A DNA stretch of 64,000 nucleotides, from assembly GCF_050920415.1 (NCBI RefSeq), contig NZ_CP169309.1, one strand, 5' to 3'. This document shows, piece by piece, positions 2,571-26,435 of the stretch. The notes under the pieces were generated by a model. It had not been told where the DNA came from. It made no database searches and saw only the letters and a list, made by a program, of their open reading frames with translations. Made by a program: the position numbers and the translations under genes. The stretch comes from Escherichia coli (GTDB taxonomy: Bacteria; Pseudomonadota; Gammaproteobacteria; Enterobacterales; Enterobacteriaceae). The first letter of the stretch is position 1. Each line of letters opens with the position of its first letter.

Positions 2571-4862
2571 TTGTCAGAACTACTCTCTTTCGCCCTTTTT
2601 CTCGCCTCTGTGCTCATTTACGCATGGAAAGCGGGACGTAATACCTGGTGGTTTGCAGCCACATTAACGGTGCTGGGGCTATTTGTCGTTTTAAATATCA
2701 CCCTGTTTGCCAGCGACTATTTTACTGGTGATGGTATTAACGACGCGGTTCTCTATACCTTAACCAACAGCCTGACCGGTGCTGGCGTCAGCAAATACAT
2801 TCTTCCGGGTATCGGCATTGTGCTGGGGCTGACGGCGGTGTTCGGTGCTCTGGGCTGGATCCTGCGCCGTCGTCGTCATCATCCGCACCATTTTGGTTAC
2901 AGCCTGCTGGCACTCTTACTGGCGCTGGGTTCAGTGGATGCCAGCCCGGCATTTCGTCAGATAACGGAACTGGTGAAATCCCAGTCACGCGACGGCGACC
3001 CGGACTTTGCGGCTTATTATAAAGAGCCGTCGAAAACTATCCCTGACCCGAAACTCAACCTGGTTTATATCTACGGCGAAAGTCTCGAGCGAACCTATTT
3101 TGATAACGAAGCTTTCCCGGATCTCACGCCTGAACTGGGCGCGTTGAAAAATGAAGGCCTGGATTTCAGCCACACGCAGCAGCTGCCAGGAACGGATTAC
3201 ACGATTGCGGGCATGGTGGCTTCTCAGTGCGGCATACCGCTGTTTGCCCCCTTTGAAGGCAACGCCTCCGCTTCTGTTTCCAGCTTCTTCCCACAGAACA
3301 TCTGCCTGGGCGATATCCTGAAGAACTCGGGTTATCAGAACTATTTCGTGCAGGGCGCGAATCTGCGTTTTGCCGGTAAAGATGTGTTCCTGAAGTCGCA
3401 CGGCTTCGACCATTTATATGGCTCAGAAGAGCTGAAAAGCGTGGTGGCAGACCCACACTATCGCAACGACTGGGGATTCTACGACGATACCGTGCTGGAT
3501 GAAGCGTGGAAAAAGTTTGAAGAGCTTTCCCGCTCTGGCCAGCGATTCTCACTGTTTACCCTGACGGTCGATACCCATCACCCGGATGGTTTTATCTCGC
3601 GCACCTGTAACCGCAAAAAATATGATTTTGACGGTAAGCCAAATCAGTCATTCAGTGCGGTAAGTTGCAGCCAGGAGAACATCGCAACGTTTATCAACAA
3701 AATCAAAGCATCACCGTGGTTTAAGGATACCGTTATCGTCGTCTCGTCTGACCATTTAGCGATGAACAACACGGCGTGGAAATACCTCAATAAGCAAGAT
3801 CGCAATAATCTGTTTTTCGTCATTCGTGGCGACAAGCCGCAGCAAGAAACGCTGGCGGTGAAGCGTAATACGATGGATAACGGCGCGACGGTGTTGGACA
3901 TTCTCGGTGGCGATAACTATCTCGGACTTGGTCGTAGCAGTTTATCCGGGCAGTCAATGTCGGAAATCTTCCTCAATATCAAAGAGAAAACGTTGGCGTG
4001 GAAGCCGGATATCATCCGCCTGTGGAAATTCCCTAAAGAGATGAAAGAGTTCACCATCGACCAGCAGAAAAACATGATTGCCTTCTCAGGTAGCCATTTC
4101 CGTTTGCCGCTGCTGTTGCGGGTTTCAGACAAACGCGTGGAACCGCTGCCGGAAAGTGAATACTCAGCACCGCTGCGTTTCCAGTTGGCCGATTTTGCTC
4201 CACGCGACAATTTCGTCTGGGTTGACCGTTGCTATAAGATGGCACAACTCTGGGCTCCGGAACTGGCACTTTCCACCGACTGGTGTGTCTCGCAAGGGCA
4301 GCTTGGCGGTCAGCAAATTGTCCAGCATGTTGATAAAACAACATGGAAGGGCAAAACGGCATTTAAAGATACGGTCATCGACATGGCGCGTTACAAAGGC
4401 AATGTCGATACGCTGAAGATTGTTGATAACGATATTCGCTACAAAGCCGACAGCTTCATTTTTAACGTCGCCGGTGCGCCGGAAGAGGTGAAACAATTTA
4501 GTGGGATTTCCCGTCCGGAGTCGTGGGGCCGCTGGTCCAACGCGCAGTTGGGCGATGAAGTCAAAATTGAGTACAAGCATCCGCTGCCGAAGAAATTTGA
4601 CCTGGTGATTACCGCCAAAGCATACGGCAATAACGCCAGCCGTCCTATTCCGGTACGCGTAGGCAATGATGAACAAACCCTTGTGCTGGGCAATGAAGTA
4701 ACCACCACCACGCTGCATTTCGATAACCCAACCGATGCTGACACGCTGGTGATTGTGCCACCTGAACCCGTCTCAACCAACGAAGGGAATATCCTCGGAC
4801 ACTCGCCGCGTAAGCTTGGTATCGGCATGGTGGAAATTAAAGTGGTGGAACGTGAAGGGTAA
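2571..4862 (+). CDS. opgB: phosphoglycerol transferase I (osmoregulated periplasmic glucan biosynthesis)
   Basis: 763 aa ORF with a TTG start, N-terminal transmembrane segments and a sulfatase-like domain; recognised as OpgB/MdoB. Confidence 0.92.
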
Positions 4863-4876
4863 TTCCTGACTGATTT

Positions 4877-4901
4877 GTAGGTCGCATAAGGTGCGACCTA
4901 C
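4877..4901. terminator. perfect hairpin (GTAGGTCGCA-loop-TGCGACCTAC), REP-like, between convergent opgB and lgoD
   Basis: Inverted repeat read directly; it lies 15 bp after the opgB stop. Confidence 0.4.
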
Positions 4902-4996
4902 ACACCTTCTCCGGCACACAACACATTATTAAGAAACAAAAAAAACAGCGCCCAACACTTCCCCGGACGCTGCATGGCAACTTTAATAATCTCGCC

Positions 4997-6022
4997 TTAT
5001 AAGAAAGTAATTACACCCTTAATCAACTCACGATTGTTAATCACATCGCGCTCATAGGTTTCTGCCAGCGTGGCGAACGGATAGCGATGGGTTAACATCA
5101 TGTCGGCAGTGATTTTTCCTTCCGCCATCAGTCGACCGACTTTAGCGAAATCTTCCGGCGTGGCGTTGCGGCTGCCCATCATCGTCGTTTCTTTTTTATG
5201 GAATTCCGGATCGGAGAACTGCAACTCACCTTTAAACAGACCGACAAATACCACCGTGCCGCCGTGACGAATCAGATTTACGGTGTTATTCATCGCATGT
5301 TGATTACCTGTCGCGTCGATCACTTTCTGCGCCAGCGAACCACCAAACTGCGCCCGCAGCTGCGCGTCAAAATCTTCGGCTGACGGGTCCAGCACGGGCA
5401 ACTCCAGACGCGTTGCCACATGTTCTCGGCGTGCCGGACTGGTATCCGCCACCACCACCTGTGCGCCATCAGCTTTAGCGATTGCCGCCGCGCCCAGACC
5501 AATTGGCCCCGCCCCGACCACCAGCACCTGCTCGCCGGGAGCAATAGCCGCACGACGCACCGCATGAGCGCTAATAGCGAAAGGTTCAATCAATGCTGCC
5601 GCCTGCGGGTCAATACCGTCTGCGGGCAAAATGTTCGCCACCGGCACGCTCAAATACTCACTAAAACCACCATCCTGATGCACACCAATAACTGAAATTT
5701 TTTCACAGCAATTGGTGCGACCGCTTTTACATGCCGGGCATTGCTGACAGGCAACATAAGGGATCACCGCAACTTGCTGACCATTTTTAAGATCAGCAAT
5801 ATTTTTACCCAGCCCAACAATCTCCCCACATATTTCATGGCCTAAAACGCGTGGATAACTAAAAAATGGTTGATTTCCACCCCAGGCATGAATATCGGTA
5901 CCGCAAATCCCGACAGACTTAATTTTTATTAATACTTCATTGTCACCCGGAATAGGTATCTCGCGTTGTTTCCAGACTAATTCTTTCGGCTGCTGGCAAA
6001 TTAAAACATTCATCGTAGACAT
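4997..6022 (-). CDS. lgoD: L-galactonate 5-dehydrogenase (Zn-dependent alcohol dehydrogenase family)
   Basis: The translation (MSTMNVLICQQPKELVWKQ...GHEICGEIV...) shows a Zn-ADH signature and a GxGxxG Rossmann motif; start set at the internal Met matching recalled LgoD/YjjN. Confidence 0.9.
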   Translation of the reverse strand: MSTMNVLICQQPKELVWKQREIPIPGDNEVLIKIKSVGICGTDIHAWGGNQPFFSYPRVLGHEICGEIVGLGKNIADLKNGQQVAVIPYVACQQCPACKSGRTNCCEKISVIGVHQDGGFSEYLSVPVANILPADGIDPQAAALIEPFAISAHAVRRAAIAPGEQVLVVGAGPIGLGAAAIAKADGAQVVVADTSPARREHVATRLELPVLDPSAEDFDAQLRAQFGGSLAQKVIDATGNQHAMNNTVNLIRHGGTVVFVGLFKGELQFSDPEFHKKETTMMGSRNATPEDFAKVGRLMAEGKITADMMLTHRYPFATLAETYERDVINNRELIKGVITFL

Positions 6023-6160
6023 GATTCGGCTCTCCATTTTTTGTTGCCTTAGATATCAATGAAAATGAAAAATGGCAGCGGAACGGAAAATCTGTTTTGT
6101 GAAAACACACGCATAAAAATGTTTTAAATCGGGTTTTAATGGACTCACAAGGAGGAAAAT

Positions 6161-7075
6161 ATGAGTCGCTCACAAAATTTACGCCACAATGTGATTAACC
6201 AGGTCATTGATGATATGGCGCGGGGTCACATCCCTTCCCCACTTCCATCGCAAAGTGCGCTGGCGGAAATGTACAACATCAGCCGCACCACAGTGCGTCA
6301 TATTCTCAGCCACTTACGCGAATGCGGCGTCTTGACGCAGGTTGGAAACGACTATGTTATTGCGCGTAAACCTGACCATGATGACGGTTTCGCCTGTACT
6401 ACCGCTTCAATGAGTGAACAAAACAAAGTGTTTGAGCAGGCTTTTTTCACGATGATAAACCAGCGTCAGTTACGCCCTGGGGAAACTTTTTCTGAACTGC
6501 AACTGGCGCGGGCCGCGGGTGTCAGCCCGGTTGTAGTAAGAGAATATCTTTTAAAATTCGGCCGTTATAATCTTATTCAAAGCGAAAAGCGCGGCCAGTG
6601 GAGCATGAAGCAATTCGATCAATCCTACGCCGAGCAGCTGTTTGAGCTACGCGAAATGCTCGAAACTCATTCACTTCAGCACTTTCTCAACCTGCCTGAT
6701 CATGATCCCCGCTGGCTGCAGGCGAAAACCATGCTCGAACGTCATCGGCTACTGCGTGACAACATCGGCAATAGCTTTCGCATGTTCTCGCAACTTGACA
6801 GAGATTTTCACTCCTTACTGCTTTCAGCTGCCGACAATATCTTTTTTGATCAATCGCTTGAGATCATCTCAGTCATCTTTCATTTTCACTATCAATGGGA
6901 CGAAAGCGATCTTAAACAGCGCAATATCATTGCCGTCGATGAGCATATGACCATTCTCAGCGCTCTGATTTGCCGCAGTGACCTGGATGCCACCCTTGCG
7001 CTCCGTAACCATTTGAATTCAGCTAAACAATCAATGATTCGATCCATTAATGAGAACACGCGTTATGCTCATTAA
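6161..7075 (+). CDS. lgoR: GntR-family regulator with FCD domain (L-galactonate operon regulator)
   Basis: 304 aa ORF with an N-terminal GntR helix-turn-helix; divergent from lgoD as in K-12. Confidence 0.88.
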   Translation: MSRSQNLRHNVINQVIDDMARGHIPSPLPSQSALAEMYNISRTTVRHILSHLRECGVLTQVGNDYVIARKPDHDDGFACTTASMSEQNKVFEQAFFTMINQRQLRPGETFSELQLARAAGVSPVVVREYLLKFGRYNLIQSEKRGQWSMKQFDQSYAEQLFELREMLETHSLQHFLNLPDHDPRWLQAKTMLERHRLLRDNIGNSFRMFSQLDRDFHSLLLSAADNIFFDQSLEIISVIFHFHYQWDESDLKQRNIIAVDEHMTILSALICRSDLDATLALRNHLNSAKQSMIRSINENTRYAH

Positions 7076-7289
7076 GTACGGATTAAAAACAGCAAACTAT
7101 TAGCGGGTGCACGGTTTTATCAAAAGATAAATACCGGAAAATTCCCGCTTACCTATGCTCACAATCAGTCGACTAAAAATGTTTTTGTGAGCGGTAGTAA
7201 AGTCCTAAAACTTTTACCTGCCGTTAATGTCAACCTTGCGTAATGCACAATTACGTAAACAATTAAAATTATAAATACAGGAGTCCGGC

Positions 7290-8651
7290 GTGGAAAAAGA
7301 AAATATCACCCTCGATCCGCGTTCTTCATTTACTCCATCTTCGTCGGCAGATATTCCCGTGCCACCAGATGGATTAGTTCAACGCAGTACCCGAATTAAA
7401 CGCATTCAAACCACCGCCATGTTGTTATTATTTTTTGCGGCGGTAATCAATTATCTCGACCGCAGTTCACTGTCGGTAGCAAATTTAACGATTCGTGAAG
7501 AATTGGGATTAAGTGCCACCGAAATCGGCGCTTTGCTCTCCGTGTTTTCACTCGCTTACGGGATTGCGCAACTTCCTTGCGGCCCACTATTGGATCGTAA
7601 AGGCCCGCGCCTGATGCTGGGACTGGGGATGTTCTTCTGGTCACTGTTCCAGGCAATGTCTGGCATGGTGCACAGCTTTACGCAGTTCGTGTTGGTGCGT
7701 ATAGGTATGGGGATTGGTGAAGCGCCGATGAACCCATGCGGTGTAAAAGTCATTAACGACTGGTTCAACATCAAAGAGCGCGGACGCCCGATGGGCTTCT
7801 TCAACGCAGCTTCTACCATTGGCGTTGCCGTAAGCCCACCGATTCTGGCGGCGATGATGCTGGTGATGGGCTGGCGCGGGATGTTTATTACCATTGGTGT
7901 ACTGGGGATTTTTCTCGCCATCGGTTGGTATATGCTCTATCGCAACCGCGAGCACGTTGAACTGACTGCCGTTGAACAAGCCTATCTCAATGCCGGTAGC
8001 GTCAATGCCCGCCGTGATCCACTCAGTTTTGCTGAATGGCGCAGCCTGTTCCGTAACCGCACAATGTGGGGAATGATGCTCGGATTCAGTGGCATCAATT
8101 ACACTGCGTGGCTGTATCTGGCCTGGCTGCCAGGTTACCTGCAAACAGCCTATAACCTGGATTTAAAAAGCACCGGGTTGATGGCGGCTATCCCTTTCCT
8201 GTTTGGGGCTGCCGGGATGCTGGTCAATGGTTACGTTACCGACTGGCTGGTCAAAGGAGGAATGGCTCCGATTAAAAGCCGTAAGATCTGCATTATTGCC
8301 GGGATGTTCTGTTCTGCCGCCTTTACGCTGGTCGTACCGCAAGCGACAACATCCATGACAGCGGTTCTGCTGATTGGCATGGCACTGTTCTGTATTCACT
8401 TTGCCGGAACATCCTGCTGGGGCTTGATCCACGTCGCAGTTGCTTCTCGCATGACTGCGTCGGTGGGCAGTATCCAAAACTTTGCCAGCTTCATCTGCGC
8501 CTCTTTTGCGCCGATCATTACTGGTTTTATTGTTGATACCACCCACTCATTCCGTCTGGCGCTAATCATCTGCGGTTGCGTCACCGCGGCGGGTGCACTG
8601 GCATACATCTTCCTGGTCCGTCAGCCGATCAACGACCCACGTAAAGATTAA
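7290..8651 (+). CDS. lgoT: MFS transporter (L-galactonate:H+ symporter)
   Basis: 453 aa ORF with a GTG start and 12-TM MFS-like hydropathy; recognised as YjjL/LgoT. Confidence 0.88.
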   Translation: MEKENITLDPRSSFTPSSSADIPVPPDGLVQRSTRIKRIQTTAMLLLFFAAVINYLDRSSLSVANLTIREELGLSATEIGALLSVFSLAYGIAQLPCGPLLDRKGPRLMLGLGMFFWSLFQAMSGMVHSFTQFVLVRIGMGIGEAPMNPCGVKVINDWFNIKERGRPMGFFNAASTIGVAVSPPILAAMMLVMGWRGMFITIGVLGIFLAIGWYMLYRNREHVELTAVEQAYLNAGSVNARRDPLSFAEWRSLFRNRTMWGMMLGFSGINYTAWLYLAWLPGYLQTAYNLDLKSTGLMAAIPFLFGAAGMLVNGYVTDWLVKGGMAPIKSRKICIIAGMFCSAAFTLVVPQATTSMTAVLLIGMALFCIHFAGTSCWGLIHVAVASRMTASVGSIQNFASFICASFAPIITGFIVDTTHSFRLALIICGCVTAAGALAYIFLVRQPINDPRKD

Positions 8652-8658
8652 TTTCCCT

Positions 8659-8692
8659 ATGCCCGATAACATTTTGCTTATCGGGCATTTTT
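8659..8692 (+). terminator. rho-independent terminator downstream of lgoT
   Basis: 11 bp stem ATGCCCGATAA / TTATCGGGCAT followed by TTTT, read directly. Confidence 0.6.
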
Positions 8693-8699
8693 ATGGCGA

Positions 8700-10364
8700 T
8701 TAAAACGTTTCCCAGTTCTCTCCGCTATCTGCCACTGCCACTTTGCGCGGCGCAGATGGCGTCACAGTTTTTACTACTGCCGATGCTTCGCGCTGGCGTT
8801 GCTGCTCTTGCTGAATCCGGAACACTGCCACAGCTTCGGTCAGGCGACTGGCCTGCTCCTCCAGCGCGGCGGCGGCGGCGGCAGATTCTTCCACCAGCGC
8901 GGCGTTTTGTTGGGTTACTCGGTCCATCTCAGCTACTGCTAAGCCAACCTGATCGATACCACGGCTCTGCTCATCAGAAGCCGAAGCAATTTCGCCCATA
9001 ATGTCCGTCACGCGGGTCACAGCGCTGACAATCTCTGCCATGGTTTCCCCGGCGCTTTCGACCAGCGTAGAGCCAACATCCACTTTGCCCACCGAGTCTT
9101 CAATCAGGCTTTTAATTTCGCGAGCCGCCTGAGCGCTACGCTGGGCCAGATTACGCACTTCTCCCGCAACCACCGCAAAACCGCGCCCTTGCTCACCTGC
9201 ACGCGCTGCTTCAACCGCCGCGTTCAAAGCCAGAATATTGGTCTGGAAGGCAATGCCGTCAATTACGCTGATAATATCGGCGATTTTCTGCGAGCTGGTG
9301 GAGATATCGCGCATGGTCTGCACCACGTTATCCACCACTTTGCCGCCACGTTGCGCCGTTTCGGAAGCACTTAACGCCAGATGGCTAGCCTGACGCGCAT
9401 TCTCGGCGTTCTGTTTCACCGTTGCGGTCAGTTGTTCCATGCTGGCTGCCGTCTCTTCCAGCGAAGCGGCCTGTTGCTCGGTGCGCGAAGAGAGATCGTT
9501 ATTGCCGGTGGCGATTTCGCTGGCACCGCTATAGATAGCATTGGCCCCGTTGCGCACATCACCGACGGTACGCATCAGCTCCCCCTGCATATGGCGCAAA
9601 CTCTCTGCCAGTTGCCCCATCTCATTAGAACCATCCACCTCAATCGGTTTCACCAGATCGCCACCTGCAATATGACGAATGCTGTCAATCAGGCGATTCA
9701 TTGGCGCTACCAACGAGGCTTTAATACCGAACCAGACGGCGAAGATGACCGCCAGTACGACGATCATCACGCCCACCAGAATCCACATCGCCTGGCTGTA
9801 GGAGGCATTATTATCGCTGACGGCGATATCATAGAGCCGATCGTTTTGCTCCATGTAAGCCACATACTGCTTCTCGAAACCGTCCTGATATCCCTGAGTC
9901 GGCTGATCAAAGAATTCGTTGATTTTGCCTGCACCTAACAGTTGGATCAGTTCCGCCAGCGCATTGTGATAAATATCGTAATTACGTTTGATCTCTGCCG
10001 CTGCGGCGGTGCTCTGACGCGGGTCACGCGGCAATGCTTCGTAATCCGCCCAGTTTTTTTCCGCCTGTTTCAGCGAAATACTGGCACTCTGCATCAGCTC
10101 GGCAACGGTTGAACCGCTACCAATATTGTTCTGATCCATCATGTAGCGGATCCCCGCGCGGTTGAGGGTGTTACGCGTCTGCAACAACGCGACCCAGCTG
10201 CCATTCAGCGTGGATTGCTGCTGGCGAATGGTTTGTAAAACAGTGAAATTTTCTTTGTCATTCTTTAAGGCATTAAAGAACAGACCGCCTGATGTCAGTT
10301 GTAAAAGGCCAAAAACGGCCAAAACCAGCAGTAAGCTGGTCACGATCTTGATACGTTTTAACAT
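8700..10364 (-). CDS. tsr: methyl-accepting chemotaxis protein I, serine chemoreceptor
   Basis: The translation from the internal Met ([19 protein letters not shown]...) has the highly conserved MCP signalling domain and a C-terminal NWETF pentapeptide; recognised as Tsr. Confidence 0.95.
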
Positions 10365-10395
10365 GGTTTCTCTTTCCACTAGACAGATACACTGG

Positions 10396-10422
10396 TTGTC
10401 GGCCTGGTGGTGGAAAACTTTA
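10396..10422 (-). promoter_or_regulatory. sigma-28 (FliA) class III flagellar promoter for tsr
   Basis: On the minus strand the sequence reads TAAAGTTT-N11-GCCGACAA, a near-consensus match to TAAAGTTT-N11-GCCGATAA, about 30 bp upstream of the tsr start. Confidence 0.6.
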
Positions 10423-10503
10423 TGCTGTGGAAAAGCGTCGGCACTGCTTTTGTTGCAGCAAACTTGCGTTTTTTGTGAGGGTCACACTCTATAGCGGCAG
10501 TTT

Positions 10504-11409
10504 ATGGTACAAAGTATCAATCTTCTTCGAACCAGTGATACTCCTATGGCTTATAGCATCGATATCATCTCCTGCATTACCGAACGATTTATGGCGTTAA
10601 CAGCCACTGAAAAGCGTATCGCACAATTTATTCTTGATGACGTCTCTGCCGCAGTAGAGTTGCCAATTGCTGAGCTGGCACGGTTAACGCAAACCAGTCA
10701 GGCGTCGGTGACGCGTTTTGCCCGTGCACTGGGGTGCAAAGATGTCCGCGAGTTGAAAGTCAAACTGGCGCAGTCACTGGCTGTCGGGCAGCGGTTTATT
10801 CTCGATGTACCGGATCTTGACGGTGTTCAGGGGATCTACGAAGCGATTATTAGCGTGCTGGAAACGCATCGTCGTTCGCTGGATATGAATGCCATCAGCC
10901 AGGCTGTAAGCTGGTTAAGTCAGGCGCGGCAAATTCTTGCGTTAGGAACTGGCGGCGGTTCCACTATCTGTTCACAGGAGATTCAGTACCGTTTATTCCG
11001 TCTGGGGCTACCAGTGGTCAGTCAGAATGATGCCCTGATGATGAGAATGATGTGCTCGGCAGTGATGCCGCAGGATGTGGTGATTGTGCTGTCGCTGGGC
11101 GGTTATACACCGGAAATCATCGAAAGTGCGGCAATCGCCCGTCAGTATGGCGCGCGTGTTATTGCCATTACGCCAGCACAAACACCGCTGGCAGAACAGG
11201 TAGATCTGGTATTGCCGCTGCTGGTTCAGGAGAGTGATTACATCTTTAAACCCACGCCTTCCCGCTACGCGATGTTAGCCATGGTCGATGTACTGGCAAC
11301 GGAACTGGCAATGGCAAATAAAGCGCAGGCGAAAGATCGCCTGCGGCGGATAAAACTGGTGTTAGACAGCCACCGTGGGGGCGCTAACCGCCAGCCACTT
11401 GGCGATTAG
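10504..11409 (+). CDS. RpiR/MurR-family transcriptional regulator (HTH plus SIS sugar-phosphate-binding domain)
   Basis: 301 aa ORF; the domain pattern is recognised by eye. The start is uncertain, with an alternative ATG at 10546. Confidence 0.75.
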   Translation: MVQSINLLRTSDTPMAYSIDIISCITERFMALTATEKRIAQFILDDVSAAVELPIAELARLTQTSQASVTRFARALGCKDVRELKVKLAQSLAVGQRFILDVPDLDGVQGIYEAIISVLETHRRSLDMNAISQAVSWLSQARQILALGTGGGSTICSQEIQYRLFRLGLPVVSQNDALMMRMMCSAVMPQDVVIVLSLGGYTPEIIESAAIARQYGARVIAITPAQTPLAEQVDLVLPLLVQESDYIFKPTPSRYAMLAMVDVLATELAMANKAQAKDRLRRIKLVLDSHRGGANRQPLGD

Positions 11410-11418
11410 CATTGTCGG

Positions 11419-12888
11419 TTATGCTTCTTCAGGTTTGGTGATCACGACACTCTGGTTTTCACGCTCATTGGTGATAATAGCCAAAGCTTCTTCCCGGCTG
11501 ACCTGACTTGCTGGCGTTACCAACGTCACCAGTACGCCAGCGACCAGGCTGCCCAGCACTGACGGAATACACGGGTTACCCCAGTAAGCCAGCCAGTCGG
11601 CATTCATCAGCACCACAATTGACATCACCATACCGCTCACTAACGCCGCCAGCGCGCCCTGCCAGTTAAAGCGTAGCCAGAAGCGACCGAGAATCGAGCA
11701 GATAAACAGCCCGGACATCAGCATCGAAATCATTTTGGTAATGTAGCTGATGATGTCATTAGAGGTCAGAGCAAAGACCAGCGCCAGGCCAATAACAAAG
11801 GTCAACATCCAGCGTGAGTAAGTAATGGCCTTGTCCTCCGGCGGCATTCTGCCGGTAATCATGGTGTAGACGTCGCGCATCATAATCGCCACTGCCGCAA
11901 TGGCATCAGAACTGGCAGAAGACATGGTGGCAGAAAGCCCGGCAATCAGCACCACCAGCCCAAGAATGGCAGGTAAGAAGCTGGTCGCGAACAAGAAGGC
12001 ATAGTTACTGTTTTCCAGATTCGGGTTCATGGTGAACGCCGCCATGCCGATAATGGCAGGCAGAATCGAGAAGAACAGATACAACACGCCAGTAATAACA
12101 AATGAACGCCGTACAGAGGGAACGTCTTTTCCCGAGTAAATACGCTGGCGATAAGATGGTGTGGCCAGTACGCCGACACCAATAACCAGCGCCAGCGAAA
12201 GCGCAGGCAGCACGCCCATTTTATCAATCGCAAACAGGCTCATCGCTTTTGGGTCCATCGCCTGCTCAATCGCACTCCAGCCACCAACGTGAACAACGGC
12301 AAGAATAGCCATTAATATAAAGCCAAAGAACAGAATTAGGGCCTGAATGGTATCGGTCCACACTACCGCCGAATAACCGCCGATAATAACGTAAATCGCA
12401 AAAGCTAAGGCAATAATTAATTTTGCCACCGTAAGATCAATACCTGTTGCCCAGGCAAGATACATACTTCCACCTAATATATGCGCCCCCAGCCAGCCAA
12501 TAGAGGCAATAAATATCATCATGCCGACAATGTTTTTAATTAAATGACTGCCGCCAGTATAATAAGATATTTCTTCACTCATGGTCATAAAACGTAATTT
12601 ACGTACCGGTGCAAACAGCCACGCCACCAGTAATATACCTACGGCCCCACCGACGCCATAAAGCATTCCGGCCCAGCCATTGCTGTAGCCAAAGCCCACT
12701 GCGCCCATACTGGAACCCGTGCCAACCATCGTGGCAACGGTTGACCCCAGCGTCAGAAACAGCGGCAGCGAACGCCCGCCCAGCAGAAAATCTTCTCCGC
12801 TTTTCTGATTACGAGAAACAAACCAACCAAGCCAAATCATGGCGATGGCATAAATAATAAAGCCGACTAAAAAGATATGACTGTTCAT
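11419..12888 (-). CDS. sodium:solute symporter (SSS) family transporter
   Basis: 489 aa ORF, highly hydrophobic with multiple TM segments, PutP/PanF-like N-terminus, and an AGGA Shine-Dalgarno before the ATG. Confidence 0.8.
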   Translation of the reverse strand: MNSHIFLVGFIIYAIAMIWLGWFVSRNQKSGEDFLLGGRSLPLFLTLGSTVATMVGTGSSMGAVGFGYSNGWAGMLYGVGGAVGILLVAWLFAPVRKLRFMTMSEEISYYTGGSHLIKNIVGMMIFIASIGWLGAHILGGSMYLAWATGIDLTVAKLIIALAFAIYVIIGGYSAVVWTDTIQALILFFGFILMAILAVVHVGGWSAIEQAMDPKAMSLFAIDKMGVLPALSLALVIGVGVLATPSYRQRIYSGKDVPSVRRSFVITGVLYLFFSILPAIIGMAAFTMNPNLENSNYAFLFATSFLPAILGLVVLIAGLSATMSSASSDAIAAVAIMMRDVYTMITGRMPPEDKAITYSRWMLTFVIGLALVFALTSNDIISYITKMISMLMSGLFICSILGRFWLRFNWQGALAALVSGMVMSIVVLMNADWLAYWGNPCIPSVLGSLVAGVLVTLVTPASQVSREEALAIITNERENQSVVITKPEEA

Positions 12889-12990
12889 AATTCACATCCT
12901 GCCAGTAGAGAGAGAATAATGTAAGAGTTCCCGGAGTGCTGAATGTATTCAGCACTCAATTGCGGTCTGTTTTTTTAATTCTTAAATTTA

Positions 12991-13386
12991 TTAGCGGGTC
13001 GCGTTATAACAGGTCACATCGACTTCGACTTTACAATCGACAACCAGATCAGCCACACAACAAATACGTGCAGGCGGATTCTCGCCAAAAAATTCTCTGA
13101 ATACTTTATTAAATGACTGGAAATAGCGGGCGTCGGTCAGGATCACTTTCACGTGAACCACATCCGCCAGGCTATAACCGGCTTCAGTCATGATGTCGAC
13201 ACAGTTTTGGATCGCCAGTCGTGACTGTTCAACGATTCCGCCTTCTACCACTTCACCGTTTTTCATGGGTGTTTGCCCGGAGACGTACAGCCAGCCGCCC
13301 GCCTCAACCGCCCTGGCAAAAGGCAAATGCTGCCCGCCAGTGCCTGTTCCACCTTCCGTACCGTAACGTTTAATGCTCATATTCAC
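12991..13386 (-). CDS. RidA/YjgF/TdcF-family enamine/imine deaminase
   Basis: 131 aa ORF with a conserved Rid-family C-terminal region; the stop is 3 bp from the start of the upstream deacylase gene. Confidence 0.8.
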   Translation of the reverse strand: MNMSIKRYGTEGGTGTGGQHLPFARAVEAGGWLYVSGQTPMKNGEVVEGGIVEQSRLAIQNCVDIMTEAGYSLADVVHVKVILTDARYFQSFNKVFREFFGENPPARICCVADLVVDCKVEVDVTCYNATR

Positions 13387-13389
13387 TCC

Positions 13390-14841
13390 TTAATGTGAGG
13401 TCTGCCGGCGCAGGAAGCGTCCCGCACGGCCTGTAATATGTTTATCGCGACCATAGCTCATAACGCCGTTCACCATCACCGCCTCAATGCCATCTGCCGG
13501 GCGTTTGGGATCAGAAAAGCTGGCAACATCACGAATGGTTTGTGGATCGAACAACACCAGGTCCGCAAAATAGCCAACTTTCACCAGTCCACGCTGGGGC
13601 AGGCGAAAACGGCTGGCAGAAAGCCCGGTCATTTTGTGGATAGCCGTGGTCAGAGGGAATAAACCTTCATCACGGCAATAGTGACCCAGCACGCGAGGGA
13701 AGGCGCCCCATAAACGTGGATGCGGCATGGGATCATTGGGCAGGCCGTCAGAGCCAATCATACTGACTGGATAACTCAATACTCTGCGGACGTCGCGCTC
13801 GTCCATGTTGTAATAGATAGCCCCGGCAGGCATTAGCAGCTTCGCGGCCTCCAGCATACTCATCTGCCAGTCGATGGCGATTTGCGCCAGTGTTTTCCCG
13901 GCCTGCTGCGGATGTGTTTGTGACCAGGTGATCACAATATCGAATTCGTCGGTGACTTGTTTGAGATCCAGCGTTGAAGAGCTGGCTGAGTAAGGGTAGA
14001 CATCGCAGCCAATTTCCTGGTGTTGACGCATTTGGTCAAAAAAAGCCAACGTTTCTTTTGTCCGCCCCCAGTTTTTCGCCCCGGCGCATTTATGGTGGGA
14101 AACCACGACAGGCACTTTGCCATGACGCCCAATACGAAACGCCTCATCCAGGGCATCGAGAATCGGTTCAAATTCAGAACGCAGATGGGTGGTATAAACG
14201 CCCTTCTCACCGGCTAATTCTTCCGCCAGCGCCATGACTTCTTCGGTAGTCGCCTGAAATGCTGTGGCATAGGCCAGCCCGGAACTTAACCCCAGCGCCC
14301 CCTGACTCAACGCCAGACGTAAGTCGGCGCGCATGGCGGCAATTTCATCCGCCGTCGCCGGGCGAAACAGGTCGTCCATATGGTTATTACGCAGCGCCGT
14401 ATGACCAATCAGCGTGCCAACGTTCAGTGACGGCCTGGCTGCTTCCACTGCCTGGGCATAGCTTTCAACGGTAGGATAAATAAAGTGCTCCGCTTCCCCC
14501 AACAGATTCATCGGGTCAGGAACTTCGCCTTTCATTTTCGCCGACGCCGCACTGATCCCGCAGTTACCGACAATCACCGTGGTGATCCCCTGGCTGATTT
14601 TTGGCAGATATTCCGGGATGCGAATAACGTTGATATCGTCATGGGTATGAACGTCGATAAACCCTGGTGCCAGCACCCGCCCTTCCCCGTCAATGACCTG
14701 CTGCGCCGTAACGTTAAGCGCAGGGGCAATATCGACAATCCGATCACCTGTTATTGCCACGTCACCGCGAAATTCAGGGCCGCCGCTACCGTCGATAACG
14801 GTCACATTTTTGATTAACCAGTCAACCTGCATGTTCGTCAC
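13390..14841 (-). CDS. N-acyl-D-amino-acid deacylase (D-aminoacylase) family amidohydrolase
   Basis: 483 aa ORF with a metal-dependent amidohydrolase N-terminus (DGxG...PGFIDVHTHDD) typical of D-aminoacylases. Confidence 0.8.
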   Translation of the reverse strand: MTNMQVDWLIKNVTVIDGSGGPEFRGDVAITGDRIVDIAPALNVTAQQVIDGEGRVLAPGFIDVHTHDDINVIRIPEYLPKISQGITTVIVGNCGISAASAKMKGEVPDPMNLLGEAEHFIYPTVESYAQAVEAARPSLNVGTLIGHTALRNNHMDDLFRPATADEIAAMRADLRLALSQGALGLSSGLAYATAFQATTEEVMALAEELAGEKGVYTTHLRSEFEPILDALDEAFRIGRHGKVPVVVSHHKCAGAKNWGRTKETLAFFDQMRQHQEIGCDVYPYSASSSTLDLKQVTDEFDIVITWSQTHPQQAGKTLAQIAIDWQMSMLEAAKLLMPAGAIYYNMDERDVRRVLSYPVSMIGSDGLPNDPMPHPRLWGAFPRVLGHYCRDEGLFPLTTAIHKMTGLSASRFRLPQRGLVKVGYFADLVLFDPQTIRDVASFSDPKRPADGIEAVMVNGVMSYGRDKHITGRAGRFLRRQTSH

Positions 14842-15032
14842 TCCATTTCTGCAATGGTGACAAGTTAACCATTTACAAGGATGAAAAACAGTGGAAAACT
14901 ACGCAAAACCCAGATGATTTTATGATACTTTTATTCATAAACTATAAGATAAATAAACTAAATATTTATATTTCATTTAGTTACAAATGATACTCACATC
15001 CGATACGGTGAAAAACTTAAAAGGTAAATGTT

Positions 15033-16253
15033 ATGAAATACCACTCAGAACCTCTGGTTCCCCATAAATCGGCCCTGATGCAAATGCCCGCAAATCTCCT
15101 TGCCGAAGATGTCTGTTTACCTGCCGCGATCATTAAAAAGCAGGCCCTGGAGAACAACATTACGTGGATGCAGCGTTATGCTGACGCGCGCGGCGTTTCG
15201 CTGGCACCGCACGGTAAAACCACCATGACGCCGTGGATTTTTCAGGCGCAGCAGGCGGCTGGTGCCTGGGCAATAGGTGTCGGTAGCGCATGGCAGGCTG
15301 GTGCGGCAATGGCGAGCGGTATTCAGCGAGTGCTGATGGTTAACCAGCTGGTCGGCAAGGCGAATATGCAGTTGATTGCCCGGTTGCAACAACATTACCC
15401 GACGGTCGATTTTATCTGCTGTATCGACAGCATTGAGAACGCCCGCGCTTTGTCTGCCTTTTTTGCCAGTCAGCAACAGACACTGAACGTGATGATTGAG
15501 CTGGGTGTTCCCGGCGGACGCTGTGGTTGCCGCTCAACGGATGCCGCACTGGCACTGGCTAAACAGGCGGCCCAATTACCAGGGCTACGTCTGCGCGGGC
15601 TTGAGTTATATGAAGGTGTTTTACACGGTGACGATCCACAACCGCAGGTAGAAGCTCTGCTGCGGGATGCCGCACAACTGGCCTGTGATATGGCAAGTCT
15701 GGTTGATGGCGAGTTTATTCTCACCGGAGCAGGCACGGTCTGGTATGACGTGGTGTGCAATATCTGGCTGGCGGCAGAAAAGCCTGATAACTGCCGCATT
15801 GTTATTCGCCCTGGCTGCTACATCACTCACGACACCGGGATCTACGACGCGGCACAACAACAGTTGCTTGCCCGCGATCCTGTGGCCTGCGATCTTGCAG
15901 GCGATCTCACATCTGCGCTGGAACTGGTCGCCATGGTGCAATCGGTGCCGGAAGCTGATCGTGCGGTGGTAAATTTTGGTAAGCGTGATTGCGCCTTCGA
16001 CGCCGGACTGCCGCAACCAGTCGCCCACTACCGCAACGGCAAATCACTGGCATTTGATCCACAGGCGATTCGCAGTACAGGTATTATGGATCAGCACTGC
16101 ATGTTGCAACTGTCAGCTAATAGCGACGTGCAAGTGGGGGATATTCTGGTGTTTGGCACATCGCATCCGTGCCTGACCTTCGACAAATGGAAAACGTTGT
16201 TATTGGCTGATGACGACTACAACGTACTGGCAGAGCTGGATACGCTGTTTTGA
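15033..16253 (+). CDS. PLP-dependent enzyme of the alanine-racemase fold (DSD1-like D-serine or D-threo-hydroxy-amino-acid dehydratase/aldolase type)
   Basis: 406 aa ORF with an N-terminal region containing the HGKT lysine motif characteristic of fold-type III PLP enzymes; divergent from the deacylase-RidA-transporter operon. Confidence 0.7.
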   Translation: MKYHSEPLVPHKSALMQMPANLLAEDVCLPAAIIKKQALENNITWMQRYADARGVSLAPHGKTTMTPWIFQAQQAAGAWAIGVGSAWQAGAAMASGIQRVLMVNQLVGKANMQLIARLQQHYPTVDFICCIDSIENARALSAFFASQQQTLNVMIELGVPGGRCGCRSTDAALALAKQAAQLPGLRLRGLELYEGVLHGDDPQPQVEALLRDAAQLACDMASLVDGEFILTGAGTVWYDVVCNIWLAAEKPDNCRIVIRPGCYITHDTGIYDAAQQQLLARDPVACDLAGDLTSALELVAMVQSVPEADRAVVNFGKRDCAFDAGLPQPVAHYRNGKSLAFDPQAIRSTGIMDQHCMLQLSANSDVQVGDILVFGTSHPCLTFDKWKTLLLADDDYNVLAELDTLF

Positions 16254-16261
16254 TAGCGCAG

Positions 16262-16283
16262 ATGGCGGGTTCCTTCCCGCCAT
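16262..16283. terminator. hairpin between convergent genes (ATGGCGGG-loop-CCCGCCAT)
   Basis: Inverted repeat read directly in the 58 bp gap. Confidence 0.45.
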
Positions 16284-16311
16284 TAATTGTATGTATATCC
16301 TTAAGTATCTA

Positions 16312-17322
16312 TCAGCTACTTATGGATCGAATATCATCATAGATTGACTGGCTGATCTCTACCCCCTGTTGCTCACTGCGCAATCGTGCCTGGTAGCGAC
16401 GTTCTCCCGGCAGGCGCGCGCCCTGAGCCTGCATCTGACTAAACAGCGTTTCCGCCCTTGCCAGATGCCTCCCTGCATCCTCACCAAGAAAACGCTGCGG
16501 ATCGAGTGCCAGGATCAACTCTCCACCATACGGCAAACCACCTGCACCGTTATCCCACGCAAGAGACTCAGCACTGGTCATATCGCCAATCAGTGGTCCC
16601 GCAATCAGCTCCACCATCGCTGCCAGTGCCGAACCTTTATGACCGCCGAAGGTTAACATTGCTCCGTCCAACACAGCTTGTGGATCGGTGGTGGCATTGC
16701 CATGGCTGTCGATCCCCCAACCTTCAGGAAGTGATTTCCCGGCTCGCTGATGTAACTGAATCTCCCCGCGTGCCGCCGCACTGGTCGCCATATCAAAAAT
16801 AAATGGCGGCAGCTTGTCGCGCGGCCAACCAAACGCGATTGGGTTAGTACCAAAAAGAGGTTTGCCCCCCCCTTTCGGCGCAACCCAGGCATGGCTTGGC
16901 GTGGTCGCCAGCGCCACCAGTCCGGCTTCAGTCAGCGGTTCAACATCCGCAAATAAGGCGGAGTAGTGAACACAATGATTAATTGCCAGTGCTGCAATCC
17001 CGCACTGACGCGTTTTCTCGATCAGTAACGGTAGTGCCTGCTGATAAGCCAACAGCGAATAGCCACCTTTGGCATCGGCCTTAACGATTGCCGGAGCCTG
17101 AGATTCCACTGTCGGCAGAGCATCGGCAGAGACTTTCCCTTTTCGCAGCGTGTCAACAATCCCCAGCAGTCGCCATAAACCGTGCGAGGCACAACCGTCG
17201 CGCTCCCCGGCGGTAACGTTTTTCGCGATCACCACTGCATGTTGCTCACTAAATCCGTTACTAATGAGCGCATGATAGGCTAGTGCGTAAGCCTCTGATA
17301 ACGAGAGGATTACTCTATCCAT
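16312..17322 (-). CDS. Ldh_2-family (malate/L-lactate dehydrogenase-like) oxidoreductase, delta1-pyrroline-2-carboxylate or delta1-piperideine-2-carboxylate reductase-like
   Basis: 336 aa ORF resembling the Ldh_2 family, which includes Pyr2C/Pip2C reductases and ureidoglycolate dehydrogenase. Confidence 0.7.
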   Translation of the reverse strand: MDRVILSLSEAYALAYHALISNGFSEQHAVVIAKNVTAGERDGCASHGLWRLLGIVDTLRKGKVSADALPTVESQAPAIVKADAKGGYSLLAYQQALPLLIEKTRQCGIAALAINHCVHYSALFADVEPLTEAGLVALATTPSHAWVAPKGGGKPLFGTNPIAFGWPRDKLPPFIFDMATSAAARGEIQLHQRAGKSLPEGWGIDSHGNATTDPQAVLDGAMLTFGGHKGSALAAMVELIAGPLIGDMTSAESLAWDNGAGGLPYGGELILALDPQRFLGEDAGRHLARAETLFSQMQAQGARLPGERRYQARLRSEQQGVEISQSIYDDIRSISS

Positions 17323-17333
17323 TTTCTACTCCT

Positions 17334-18935
17334 TTATTCTTCTTCATCCCCGTTAAAGTTCGCCCGAGGAAGACAGGTGTATGCGCCCCAGTAATAAATT
17401 CCCAACGACATCAGCGCGACGACGATAGTATCCCACGGGTGCCCTATAATGCCGCTACCGCCAAAGCTACCCAGCCAGGAAAACAGCATAATCAGGGCAT
17501 AGAAGGCAATAAGCCACAATGAAGATTTAATCTGCTGCGCCAGGCTGACATGCTGAACAGGCACTTTCGACTTGCAACTCACGTAAACCACAAACATTAC
17601 GATTTGTAGCCCCAGCAGCCAGGAAAGCGTCCCCCAACCAGACCAAAAAACAATCAGTGCGGAAATCATAAAAGAGAGTGGGCCAAGCACCGCAAAACCA
17701 CGAACGCGGAACGGGCGCGGCATATCAGGTGCATTACGGCGCAGTCCTGCAGCTGTAACCGGCGCGATGGCGTAGCTCAGTACCAGAGCCGCAGAAACCA
17801 CGCTAATCAATTGCTCCCACGACGGGAACGGTAGCGTCCAGAAGATAGATAAACCAAACGTCAGCCACAGTGCCGGACGTGGAATACCTGACTCCTTATC
17901 GATATGAGTAAAGGTTTTAAAGAATGTCCCCGCCTTCGCCCAGCCATAGATCACACGCGGTGTCGCATTCATGTAAATATTGCCAGTGCCGCTGGGAGAC
18001 ACAATAGCATCACATACCACCATAAATGCCAGCCAGCCCATCCCGAGAGTAATGGCGATATCGCGATATGGCAGCGAATAGTTCTTACTGATCTCCGCCC
18101 AACCACCACTTAGCGATTCAGTTGGAATACTGCCCAAAAAGGCGACCTGCAACAGAACGTAGATGATGGTCGAGAGAATTACCGAGAGGATCAGCGCAAA
18201 TGGGATGGTACGTTGCGGATTTTGCGCCTCGCTGGCTACGGAGATAATCGGTGTCAGTCCAAGGTAAGCGAAGATAATCCCACCCGCGCTAATTGCCGCT
18301 TCCACTCCTGACATACCAAATGGAGCCATACCCTGTATATGCAGATTCTCCGGTTTGAAGAAGGCAAATAACGTTATTACCACCAGCAACGGCACCAGAA
18401 ACTTCAGCACGCTAATAAAATTGTTCGAGCGAGCGAAAGTTTTAACACTGTAGTAGTTCAGGGCAAAAAAGAAGCACAACAGTAAGAACTGCACCACCCA
18501 GCCTAACAGCGTCGGGTCACTACTCCCCGTCTGCGTCAGCGCAGGAAACCAGGCGGCGGCATATTGCCGTGCGGCTACAATCTCAATGGAGATCAGGCTG
18601 GAGAAGGCAATCAGGGTAATAAAACCCAGCAGATAGCCCATCAATTCGCCGTGCGAAAATACCGGGTAACGAATAATACCGCCCGCGCGGGGAAGCGCCG
18701 CCCCCAGTTCGCAGTAAATAATCCCCAGTAGCAGCACCGCAAAACCGCCAATAACCCAGGAAGCAATCCCTGCTGGGCCAGCGATCGATGCGACATGGCT
18801 GGCAGCAAACAGCCAGCCAGAACCGAAAATCGCCCCCAGACCAATAAAGGTCAAGTCGGTGAGCGTTAACTGCTTTTTAAACTTCCCCGACTCAACAACG
18901 ACGGTTTGCGTGCTTTGGGTAGAAGGAATTGTCAT
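17334..18935 (-). CDS. APC-superfamily amino-acid permease
   Basis: Polytopic membrane protein. The start was moved to the internal ATG at 18935 to remove a 40 bp overlap with the upstream gene. Confidence 0.8.
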   Translation of the reverse strand: MTIPSTQSTQTVVVESGKFKKQLTLTDLTFIGLGAIFGSGWLFAASHVASIAGPAGIASWVIGGFAVLLLGIIYCELGAALPRAGGIIRYPVFSHGELMGYLLGFITLIAFSSLISIEIVAARQYAAAWFPALTQTGSSDPTLLGWVVQFLLLCFFFALNYYSVKTFARSNNFISVLKFLVPLLVVITLFAFFKPENLHIQGMAPFGMSGVEAAISAGGIIFAYLGLTPIISVASEAQNPQRTIPFALILSVILSTIIYVLLQVAFLGSIPTESLSGGWAEISKNYSLPYRDIAITLGMGWLAFMVVCDAIVSPSGTGNIYMNATPRVIYGWAKAGTFFKTFTHIDKESGIPRPALWLTFGLSIFWTLPFPSWEQLISVVSAALVLSYAIAPVTAAGLRRNAPDMPRPFRVRGFAVLGPLSFMISALIVFWSGWGTLSWLLGLQIVMFVVYVSCKSKVPVQHVSLAQQIKSSLWLIAFYALIMLFSWLGSFGGSGIIGHPWDTIVVALMSLGIYYWGAYTCLPRANFNGDEEE

Positions 18936-18946
18936 AGTGATGCCCT

Positions 18947-20557
18947 TCAATGAGTCAACAAGGAGGAAATGGCTTCCCGGGTCCACTGGCCGTTAACCAA
19001 GCGCAGCAGGTTTAATGGATTACTGTCCTGCAGCGCAGGCGGTAATAGTGCAGCGGGTGCATTTTGCAGGCATACCGGGCGCAGAAAACGAGTAATGGCC
19101 AGCGTGCCTACGGACGTGCCGCGCGCGTCGGTGGTTGCCGGGAACGGACCACCGTGTACCATGGCATCGCAAACCTCGACGCCGGTGGGATAGCCATTGA
19201 ACAATACGCGTCCGGCTTTATCAGCCAACAATGGCAATAAACGACCAGCCAGTTGCCGGTCATCCTCATCCGCCTGAAGTGTGGCAGTAAGTTGCCCTTG
19301 CAGAGCGTTAATTACCTGCAACAACTCCGCTTCATCAGCGGCTTCAACCACAATCGCGAGCGGCCCGAACACTTCCTCCTGCAACAGAGGATCTTTTTCA
19401 AGTATGTTTGCCGCCTGAGCCTGATAGAGACGAGTTTCTGCTCGTCCGGCTTGATGATTATCGTCCCCCGCCAAACACCGAATAGTCGGATGTTCTGCCA
19501 GTTTCTCCACGCTGTGGCGATAGTGCTCAAGCGTGGAGGCGTTTAGCATGAGTTGCGGTGTGGCGGCATTCACTTTCTCAACCAGTTGCTGTAAAAAGTC
19601 CGCGTTTTTCTCCCCTTTCAGCAACACAATCAGGCCTGGTTTAGTGCAGAACTGTCCACATCCCAACGTGAACGACGCGACTAAATCGCGGGCCAGCGTA
19701 TCGGCACGTACTGATAGCGCCTGCGGCAGAATGAAAAAGGGATTGAGAGCCGACATTTCGGCAAAAACCGGTATCGGCTGTGGACGCTGTTGGGCCAAAC
19801 GAAAGAGCGCCATGCCACCACGTAATGAGCCGGTAAAACCCACCGCCTGAATTGCGGGATGTTTCACCAGTTCAGCACCGATATCAGTACCGAAAATCAT
19901 ATTGAATACGCCTGCGGGCATGGCGCATTTAGTCACGGCACGAGCGATCGCTGATGCGATAATTTCTGCCGTTGCCATATGCCCAGGATGCGCTTTCACA
20001 ACTACCGGGCATCCTGCAGCCAGTGCCGCTGCTGTATCACCACCGGCGATAGAAAAAGCGAGTGGAAAGTTGCTGGCACCAAATACCGCCACCGGCCCGA
20101 GAGCCGTTTTATACTGGCGCAAATCCGGTCGAGGCAGAGGCTGACGCTCCGGCAACGCAGTATCAATTCTTACCTCAAACAGATCGCCCCGACGTAATAA
20201 CCCGGCAAACATGCGCATCTGCCCGCTGGTTCTTGCCCGCTCTCCCTGTAAACGCGCCAGGGGTAACGCTGTCTCCTGATGTGCCGTAGCGAACAGTTCG
20301 TCGCCTGCTGCATCAAGTTCATCGGCGATGGTTTCTAAAAAATCGGCACGTTGCCCGGCATTGGTCAGTGAATAGCACACAAAAGCCTGCTGCGCCGCAA
20401 TAGCCGCCTGCTCGGCCTCCTCCACGGAGGCCGGGTAAAAACGTTGCCCGGTAGGTTCGCCATCCTGCGCTCGCAGGCTGACCAGCGACGGTTCACCGCT
20501 GGCAACACGTTGCCCGGCGATGAACTGTTGCCCGGTGAAAGGGAAAGTTTCAGTCAT
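18947..20557 (-). CDS. NAD(P)-dependent aldehyde dehydrogenase, 2,5-dioxovalerate (alpha-ketoglutarate semialdehyde) dehydrogenase-like
   Basis: 536 aa ALDH-superfamily protein with catalytic Cys context (GQFCTKPG) and a length typical of KGSADH. Confidence 0.8.
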   Translation of the reverse strand: MTETFPFTGQQFIAGQRVASGEPSLVSLRAQDGEPTGQRFYPASVEEAEQAAIAAQQAFVCYSLTNAGQRADFLETIADELDAAGDELFATAHQETALPLARLQGERARTSGQMRMFAGLLRRGDLFEVRIDTALPERQPLPRPDLRQYKTALGPVAVFGASNFPLAFSIAGGDTAAALAAGCPVVVKAHPGHMATAEIIASAIARAVTKCAMPAGVFNMIFGTDIGAELVKHPAIQAVGFTGSLRGGMALFRLAQQRPQPIPVFAEMSALNPFFILPQALSVRADTLARDLVASFTLGCGQFCTKPGLIVLLKGEKNADFLQQLVEKVNAATPQLMLNASTLEHYRHSVEKLAEHPTIRCLAGDDNHQAGRAETRLYQAQAANILEKDPLLQEEVFGPLAIVVEAADEAELLQVINALQGQLTATLQADEDDRQLAGRLLPLLADKAGRVLFNGYPTGVEVCDAMVHGGPFPATTDARGTSVGTLAITRFLRPVCLQNAPAALLPPALQDSNPLNLLRLVNGQWTREAISSLLTH

Positions 20558-20572
20558 AATCTCTCCCCCACC

Positions 20573-21514: not shown

Positions 21515-21644
21515 TCTGTTGCGTCAATGTGAATTAAAAGTGAATCTTCATTAACAGATTGACCTCTCCTTGCGCTGGCGGCTTGTCGATTTTCTTTCCC
21601 CAGGATGACGAAATTAGCACAATGCCCAGTTGTGATTTGTCGTG

Positions 21645-22472: not shown

Positions 22473-22783
22473 AGTTGTTCCTCATAGCGATTGAGGATGA
22501 ATGTTTATTAACCTTTGATTAACATGACAAGTACTGAAAGTGCATTTTGCGATCCTTCCGTGTATTTCCACTTTCCGTTGCTCTCACTACTGACGAACGC
22601 TTGTTCCTGGTCTAACACATCACTAACAAAATGATTAATATTAAAAAAACATGACCACTCCTGGTGTCGCGAAATAATTCACTGTGCTGATTTCGTCATT
22701 TCCCTTGCAGAAACCCTTCAAGCGATAAAGTTGCAATTACGCCAGCATTTAGAAACATTTTGTTAACCACATGGAGCCAGAGC

Positions 22784-24837: not shown

Positions 24838-25097
24838 GTGGCACCATTAGAATTTTTATTGCCGGACAGCCCTGGTTTGTCCCGACGGGTATTAGCGTAG
24901 CGGCGGCACTGGCCTTAACTGATAACCCCATTACGCGCCTTTCGGTGAGCGGGCAACCACGTACGCCCTTCTGCGGCATGGGCGTTTGCCAGGAGTGTCG
25001 GGTGAGCGTTAATGGTCGTCGGGTACCCGGTTGTCAGACCCTTTGCCAGCCAGACATGCAGATTGAAAGGAGCGGATATGCAGACCTTACAGTGTGA
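24834..25097 (+). CDS. small [2Fe-2S]-binding subunit (HcnA / sarcosine-oxidase-alpha N-terminus-like)
   Basis: 87 aa ORF with a Cys cluster (CGMGVCQEC...GC); ATGA overlap with the upstream gene. Confidence 0.65.
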   Translation: MSGTIRIFIAGQPWFVPTGISVAAALALTDNPITRLSVSGQPRTPFCGMGVCQECRVSVNGRRVPGCQTLCQPDMQIERSGYADLTV

Positions 25098-26343: not shown

Positions 26344-26370
26344 ATCCCTGATAATAATTTGGCGTTAAGG

Positions 26371-26435
26371 GCTTATCTGGTCTGGTAAATCTTACAAATT
26401 CAATATATTGCAGAATCTATCCAGGCCAGATAAGC
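26371..26435. repeat. 15 bp imperfect inverted repeat (GCTTATCTGGTCTGG ... CCAGGCCAGATAAGC) at the right boundary of the tsr-btsT island
   Basis: Read directly; one mismatch between arms, about 35 nt spacer. Confidence 0.4.

Follow-up and report, generated by a model that had tools for sequence, protein, structure and literature searches.

The sigma-28 promoter of tsr beside a strain-variable metabolic cassette in Escherichia coli

What becomes of a promoter of the flagellar cascade when the DNA immediately upstream of it is replaced by an unrelated segment? The question is raised by a stretch of 64,000 nucleotides of Escherichia coli DNA (hereinafter the window), in which the serine chemoreceptor gene tsr adjoins a cassette of hydroxyproline and D-amino-acid catabolism genes. 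An earlier reading of this DNA, made from the sequence alone, had proposed that a near-consensus sigma-28 promoter was retained for tsr next to an island insertion and that regulation of the chemoreceptor by the flagellar cascade was thereby left untouched. The sigma-28 promoter of tsr is already known, textbook biology; what the window offers is the same promoter kept beside a different neighbourhood.

The promoter element in the window

The minus strand at positions 10396-10422 reads TAAAGTTT-N11-GCCGACAA, a single mismatch from the sigma-28 consensus TAAAGTTT-N11-GCCGATAA, within the context CA-TAAAGTTT-TCCACCACCAG-GCCGACAA-CCAGTG. Both coordinates and sequence are exactly those of the sequence-only reading, and its placement of the motif suitably upstream of tsr likewise holds: the element lies on the tsr strand and is directed toward tsr, with 31 nt from the end of the -10 octamer to the ATG. 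The features of this side of the locus are:

10415-10422, minus strand: -35 element TAAAGTTT of the sigma-28 (FliA) promoter of tsr, matching the consensus at 8/8 positions
10404-10414, minus strand: spacer TCCACCACCAG of 11 nt, read off the sequence
10396-10403, minus strand: -10 element GCCGACAA, matching the consensus GCCGATAA at 7/8 positions, with the CGA core intact
10388-10391, minus strand: predicted transcription start, about 6 nt past the -10 octamer, near 10390, placed by alignment transfer
10365-10387, minus strand: short 5' leader, from the sequence, with the ribosome-binding site GGAAAGAG at 10377-10370
8700-10364, minus strand: tsr, serine chemoreceptor, from the list of open reading frames, its translation and the RefSeq annotation of E. 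coli MFDS1022581

Searching the window for TAAAGTTT-N11-GCCGATAA with up to three mismatches recovered the tsr site as the sole match. At that stringency 0.76 matches per window are expected by chance, a figure that would leave room for a fortuitous motif, and the significance therefore depends on the site having a single mismatch; with up to one mismatch allowed, 0/100 dinucleotide-preserving shuffles yielded any match. A position weight matrix built from 51 FliA ChIP-seq motifs (Fitzgerald et al., PMC4183435, Table 2), with the K-12 tsr motif excluded, likewise ranked the tsr site first over both strands of the 64 kb (18.62 bits; the next-best site scored 15.07). A scan of the tsr-RpiR intergenic region for sigma-70-like promoters gave no candidate, and a second, sigma-70 promoter for tsr was accordingly dropped, there being none to consider between tsr and the divergent gene; an Rfam scan of 8500-10700 returned nothing at the promoter.

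The alignment with the K-12 tsr promoter that had been proposed as a check was carried out, and the window element proved to be the orthologue of that promoter, aligning base for base and in register with TAAAGTTT-TTCCTTTCCAG-GCCGAAAA of K-12 (MC1061). The K-12 site has the third-highest FliA ChIP-seq score (94) of 52, with the motif TAAAGTTTTTCCTTTCCAGGCCGAAAAT, and tsr RNA falls about 70-fold, from 630 in the wild type to 9 in a fliA mutant (PMC4183435); Zhao et al. reported tsr expression 5.4-fold lower in a fliA mutant and 3.1-fold higher upon sigma-F induction (PMC1935009). This orthology to an experimentally bound, FliA-dependent promoter, the correct distance from tsr, the single mismatch that no shuffle equalled, and the conservation of the element across genera while its surroundings differ together make it exceedingly improbable that the motif is a chance match devoid of promoter function. 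We hold with high confidence that this element serves tsr as its functional promoter, read by FliA (sigma-28) RNA polymerase as part of class 3 of the flagellar cascade. Our own evidence for the window concerns its sequence, rarity, K-12 orthology, conservation and breakpoint, and FliA binding and dependence come from the K-12 literature; we infer by analogy that tsr would be FliA-dependent in the window strain too. Since neither octamer, nor the 11-nt spacing, nor the CGA is disrupted, continued FliA control is the natural expectation, and it is most likely that this control is preserved beside the cassette. On this basis tsr can be annotated as FliA-controlled in the window strain, with a well-characterised promoter at the expected place.

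In the proposed mechanism, region 4 of FliA would read TAAAGTTT (10422-10415) and region 2 would read GCCGACAA (10403-10396) across the obligatory 11-nt spacer; transcription would start about 6 nt downstream, near 10390, to give a leader of about 25 nt that carries a strong ribosome-binding site ahead of the tsr ATG. The predicted start takes its distance from the aer promoter, where transcription begins 6 bp downstream of the -10 octamer, and from K-12 tsr, where the CRP site placed at -132.5 by Hollands et al. also puts +1 at 6 nt (PMC2859248); a mapped tsr start was found neither in the supplements of studies of transcription starts and sigma networks (PMC3415461, PMC4161252, PMC3923258) nor by full-text search. 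The promoter would require no upstream activator site, and the DNA upstream of the -35 element would consequently be freely exchangeable, which fits a cassette abutting it at a distance of 2 nt.

The tsr gene served by this promoter is intact (ATG at 10364-10362, C-terminal NWETF) and encodes 554 amino acids, as against 551 in K-12; the stretch 8725-8824, which codes for the C-terminal linker before NWETF, is a hotspot of divergence with 19 differences per 100 nt from K-12. Beyond the 3' end of tsr, the window conserves at 8643-8670 (plus strand), with two bases changed in the spacer, a second and weak site from the K-12 FliA ChIP data, entered there as "tsr/yjiZ convergent" (AAAGATTAATCTCCTTATGCCCGATAAC, score 3; PMC4183435). 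The site overlaps both the stop codon of lgoT and a bidirectional terminator hairpin (8659-8688), and points antisense into the 3' end of tsr. A sub-threshold Rfam match to SdsR_RyeB at this tsr/lgoT terminator hairpin (27 bits, against a gathering threshold of 38) was taken as chance.

The junction and the alternative segments upstream

The window region is 99.99% identical to E. coli MFDS1022581 over 23.5 kb, and the RefSeq annotation of that strain supplied the gene assignments for the cassette. The features on this side of the promoter are:

10424/10425: breakpoint of K-12 similarity, from BLAST, 2 nt upstream of the -35 element
10425-26536: variable cassette of 16.1 kb, carrying genes for the catabolism of hydroxyproline and D-amino acids, where K-12 has 135 bp
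10546-11409, plus strand: divergent regulator of the MurR/RpiR family, the first gene of the cassette, from the list of open reading frames and the MFDS1022581 RefSeq annotation, with an alternative ATG at 10504

In BLAST comparison with the K-12 locus (L001), one block of similarity joins K-12 3001-6424 to window 10424-6991, and the other joins K-12 529-2865 to window 28873-26537. With K-12 similarity reaching 2 nt past the -35 element on its upstream side, the whole promoter lies outside the variable segment, in agreement with the earlier claim that the insertion point must lie beyond it. The cassette encodes regulators of the MurR/RpiR and AraC families and transporters (an SSS symporter and an APC permease), along with RidA, a D-aminoacylase, an amino acid deaminase, an Ldh-family oxidoreductase and an aldehyde dehydrogenase; further genes code for a DHDPS-family protein, a 4-hydroxyproline epimerase, two FAD oxidoreductases and a 2Fe-2S protein. 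It is variably present, in 193/5426 complete E. coli genomes. No integrase or transposase is annotated among the cassette genes in the 99.99% identical strain MFDS1022581, no tRNA genes lie in 5000-31000, the two cassette ends share no word of at least 7 nt, and the GC content (0.47-0.59 within the cassette, 0.46-0.57 in the flanks) does not deviate; a canonical mobile island was ruled out on these grounds, and the cassette is better described as a flexible metabolic segment. Of the "island insertion" of the sequence-only reading, the strain-variable segment thus stands, but it replaces 135 bp rather than being simply inserted, is one of four alternatives, and bears no marks of a mobile island.

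These four alternatives between btsT and tsr emerged from a survey of 5426 complete E. coli genomes:

K-12-type segment, 135 bp: 2753 genomes
hpa cluster, with hpaR adjoining tsr: 2073 genomes
O157-type segment, 822 bp, with a hypothetical gene: 360 genomes
hydroxyproline/D-amino-acid cassette, the window type: 193 genomes

Combined, they account for 5379/5388 genomes having the tsr 5' region. The window and O157 types diverge from K-12 at identical points (L001 2865/2866 and 3000/3001), and for the hpa type, where the comparison covered just the tsr side, the break coincides with that of the window. In a four-way alignment similarity starts at (C/T)ATAAAGTTTT, with four unrelated sequences upstream of it. 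The -35 element TAAAGTTT (unchanged in Escherichia sp. E1V33 as well), the GCCGA of the -10 element, the 11-nt spacing (found in all homologues compared) and the ribosome-binding site GGAAAGAG, invariant in the alignments of locus types, are constant among the four types; the sequences of spacer and leader vary with the type of cassette. Constant core elements with a variable spacer and leader are what one would expect of a self-sufficient promoter. The locus thereby illustrates how compact a sigma-28 promoter can be: in more than 5000 genomes one or another of four unrelated segments comes to within 2 nt of the -35 element and leaves the core undisturbed, which fits a promoter needing no upstream activator.

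Several observations were made around the two ends of the cassette. About 31 nt inside its far end there is a CRP-like site (TGTGATTGAGATCACG, window 26491-26506), whose offset from the btsT-side breakpoint equals that of a strong K-12 CRP site (AAATATGTGATTCATATCACATATTT, L001 2890-2915); given this equal offset in otherwise unalignable surroundings, the CRP input to btsT seems to have been kept in position. At the tsr end, the blocks TACTTTGTACCATAAA and AGAGTGTGACCCTCA (10476-10516, read on the minus strand) are conserved between E. coli and E1V33 amid diverging surroundings; the latter contains the inverted repeat TGTGA-CCC-TCACA, and both are candidates for a promoter or operator of the MurR/RpiR gene. 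The 8-nt word TTTTCCAC occurs as a direct repeat at 10410-10417 and 10427-10434, 17 nt apart, around the -35 element, and the first 17 nt of tsr (ATGTTAAAACGTATCAA, 10348-10364) match the alternative RpiR start (ATGGTACAAAGTATCAA, 10504-10520) at 82%; we considered a duplication as the source of both and rejected it, the similarities being short, forming no coherent duplication and probably due to chance. A natural tsr deletion was also encountered: in E. coli CUVET20-416 (L004) the locus is intact through the promoter to 19 nt into tsr, IS1A follows shortly after, and the remainder of tsr, lgoT and lgoR are absent.

A promoter-plus-leader allele linked to the cassette

The claim that the tsr promoter was "retained" and "untouched" requires qualification when the region downstream of the breakpoint is compared with K-12. 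The 100 nt from 10424 to 10325 hold 16 differences, 14 of which fall between the -35 element and the ribosome-binding site, and the next 900 nt of tsr hold only 0-3 per 100 nt. A search with the 60-nt promoter-plus-leader recovered exactly 193 genomes, a count equal to that of the cassette, with 188/193 identical; in KV7, the sole variant examined among cassette strains, the change lies in the spacer and the core elements are unaltered. Four cassette-bearing strains, including PKF8 and E1624, whose intergenic region is unlike that of the window, have an identical promoter and leader. From the equal counts the allele is fully cassette-linked, and is not an untouched K-12 promoter. The core elements, their spacing and the CGA are intact, within a distinct cassette-linked allele that departs from K-12 at 14 positions between the -35 element and the ribosome-binding site.

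The data are compatible with two histories. In one, an E. coli allele of old or ancestral origin has stayed linked to the cassette; in the other, promoter and leader were co-imported with it. In the latter, a functional promoter-plus-leader allele would have come with the cassette from a divergent Escherichia or a Citrobacter-like donor, which we consider a serious possibility though not the favoured one; in that case the recombined tract would have extended to the vicinity of the ribosome-binding site or the start codon instead of stopping upstream of the -35 element, and to this part we attach the same tentative weight. The clustering of 14 of the 16 differences ahead of the ribosome-binding site, followed by 0-3 per 100 nt, and the occurrence of allele and cassette in exactly 193 genomes each are as such an import would leave them. 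An old E. coli allele, however, predicts the same pattern, since recombination cannot start inside non-homologous cassettes, and the K-12, hpa and O157 types also differ from one another mainly in these 100 nt (3-8 differences).

Comparisons with other species bear on the same choice. We scanned one genome per species for the pattern TAAAGTTT-N11-GCCGANAA-N15-35-ATGTTAAAACG, which leaves out species with no exact match (e.g., Salmonella, E. albertii and E. fergusonii), and retrieved 26 representatives from Citrobacter, Pseudocitrobacter, Kluyvera, E. coli and Escherichia sp. E1V33; as the pattern demanded both core elements, their constancy among these 26 is not independent evidence. Among the 26 representatives, position 6 of the -10 element is occupied by either A or C and in no case by T; the upstream DNA bears no relation from one clade to another. 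The leader of the window agrees with those of C. amalonaticus, C. sedlakii and C. braakii at 28/31 positions and with that of K-12 at 23/31, a closeness that speaks for co-import from a Citrobacter-like source but could just reflect an ancestral allele; a donor with an identical allele was not found.

Outside E. coli the cassette recurs in Escherichia sp. E1V33 (L025), which has the same junction of cassette and tsr. Over window 6866-19968 its cassette is 1-7% diverged from that of the window and the tsr-lgoT flank 10-20%; amino acid identities are 97.9% for RpiR and 99.2% for the SSS symporter, against 94.4% for Tsr and 81.9% for LgoT. A divergence so far below that of the adjoining core genes suggests, from these alignments, that the cassette has passed between species, and the shared junction would accord with promoter and leader having travelled along. 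Promoter plus leader differ from those of E1V33 at 7/62 aligned positions, which counts against co-import from this source. The 200 nt of 10568-10370, comprising intergenic region, promoter and leader, are the most diverged stretch against E1V33 (43 differences), yet the 27-nt promoter itself is 26/27 identical.

A broader reading, which we offer as speculative and judge quite improbable as a whole, takes these observations jointly: a replaceable four-state site would extend from the promoter region of btsT to the -35 element of tsr, at the upstream edge of the latter, and its occupants would carry linked alleles of spacer and leader; the allele of the hydroxyproline/D-amino-acid cassette has a C-type -10 element and a leader like that of Citrobacter. 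If such linked alleles set different levels of Tsr, whichever cassette is present would adjust serine, AI-2 and energy taxis along with the metabolic trait. Alternatively, the sharp common boundaries could stem from a targeted exchange mechanism and not from selection on the two promoters.

Comparison with known tsr and aer promoters

With K-12 tsr the window shares the gene, the position of the promoter relative to the start codon, the -35 element, the 11-nt spacing, the GCCGA core and the ribosome-binding site. It differs in having C in place of A at position 6 of the -10 element (K-12 GCCGAAAA), in 5/11 spacer bases, in a leader that is 1 nt longer with 7 substitutions, and in the DNA upstream of -37, which is wholly unrelated and lacks the K-12 CRP site at -132.5. 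These differences could mean that FliA recognises the element and that tsr expression, and hence chemoreceptor dosage, is nonetheless altered by the C replacing the consensus T in the -10 element together with the exchanged DNA upstream, an outcome that we regard as unlikely. The C at position 6 occurs in just 1/52 FliA-bound K-12 sites and the K-12 tsr site scores 20.69 bits with the same FliA matrix, about 2 bits above that of the window, for which reasons promoter strength may differ; everything upstream of -37 is unlike K-12, and at a distance of 123 bp there is a divergent regulator gene, with conserved blocks in the intergenic region. K-12 tsr, however, deviates from the consensus at the same -10 position (with A) and is still among the strongest FliA sites (PMC4183435), and the CGA core that dominates activity is intact in the window (PMC2859248). 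Moreover, the strong CRP site at -132.5 has no detectable effect on the K-12 tsr promoter (PMC2859248), so that loss of the upstream DNA need not matter.

The window form of the promoter has close counterparts elsewhere, which also weigh against an altered dosage, GCCGACAA being the -10 element of tsr in several Citrobacter species and in E1V33. The tsr promoters of the Citrobacter amalonaticus group have TAAAGTTT-N11-GCCGACAA and a very similar leader, as in the window (the 28/31 agreement given above); they differ in the spacer and in the DNA preceding the -35 element, which is unrelated to that of the window, and their tsr has neither RpiR nor SSS genes for neighbours. Escherichia sp. E1V33 is like the window in both TAAAGTTT-N11-GCCGACAA and the cassette upstream of tsr, and differs in the spacer.

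The aer promoter, TAAAGATA-N11-GCCGACAT, offers a characterised comparison from a second chemoreceptor-type gene under sigma-28, in which mutation showed both octamers to be essential, the CGA above all (Hollands et al., PMC2859248). In the window we looked for an aer-like CRP site at -49.5 upstream of tsr and rejected the nearest TGTGA..TCACA (about 10490-10478), which has a gap of 3 nt and not 6. Like the window tsr promoter, aer has the GCCGAC form of the -10 element (PMC2859248), and its FliA dependence thus gives the C at position 6 a functional precedent. Unlike the window tsr arrangement, aer combines a weaker -35 element with a need for CRP, bound at -49.5, to reach full activity (PMC2859248).
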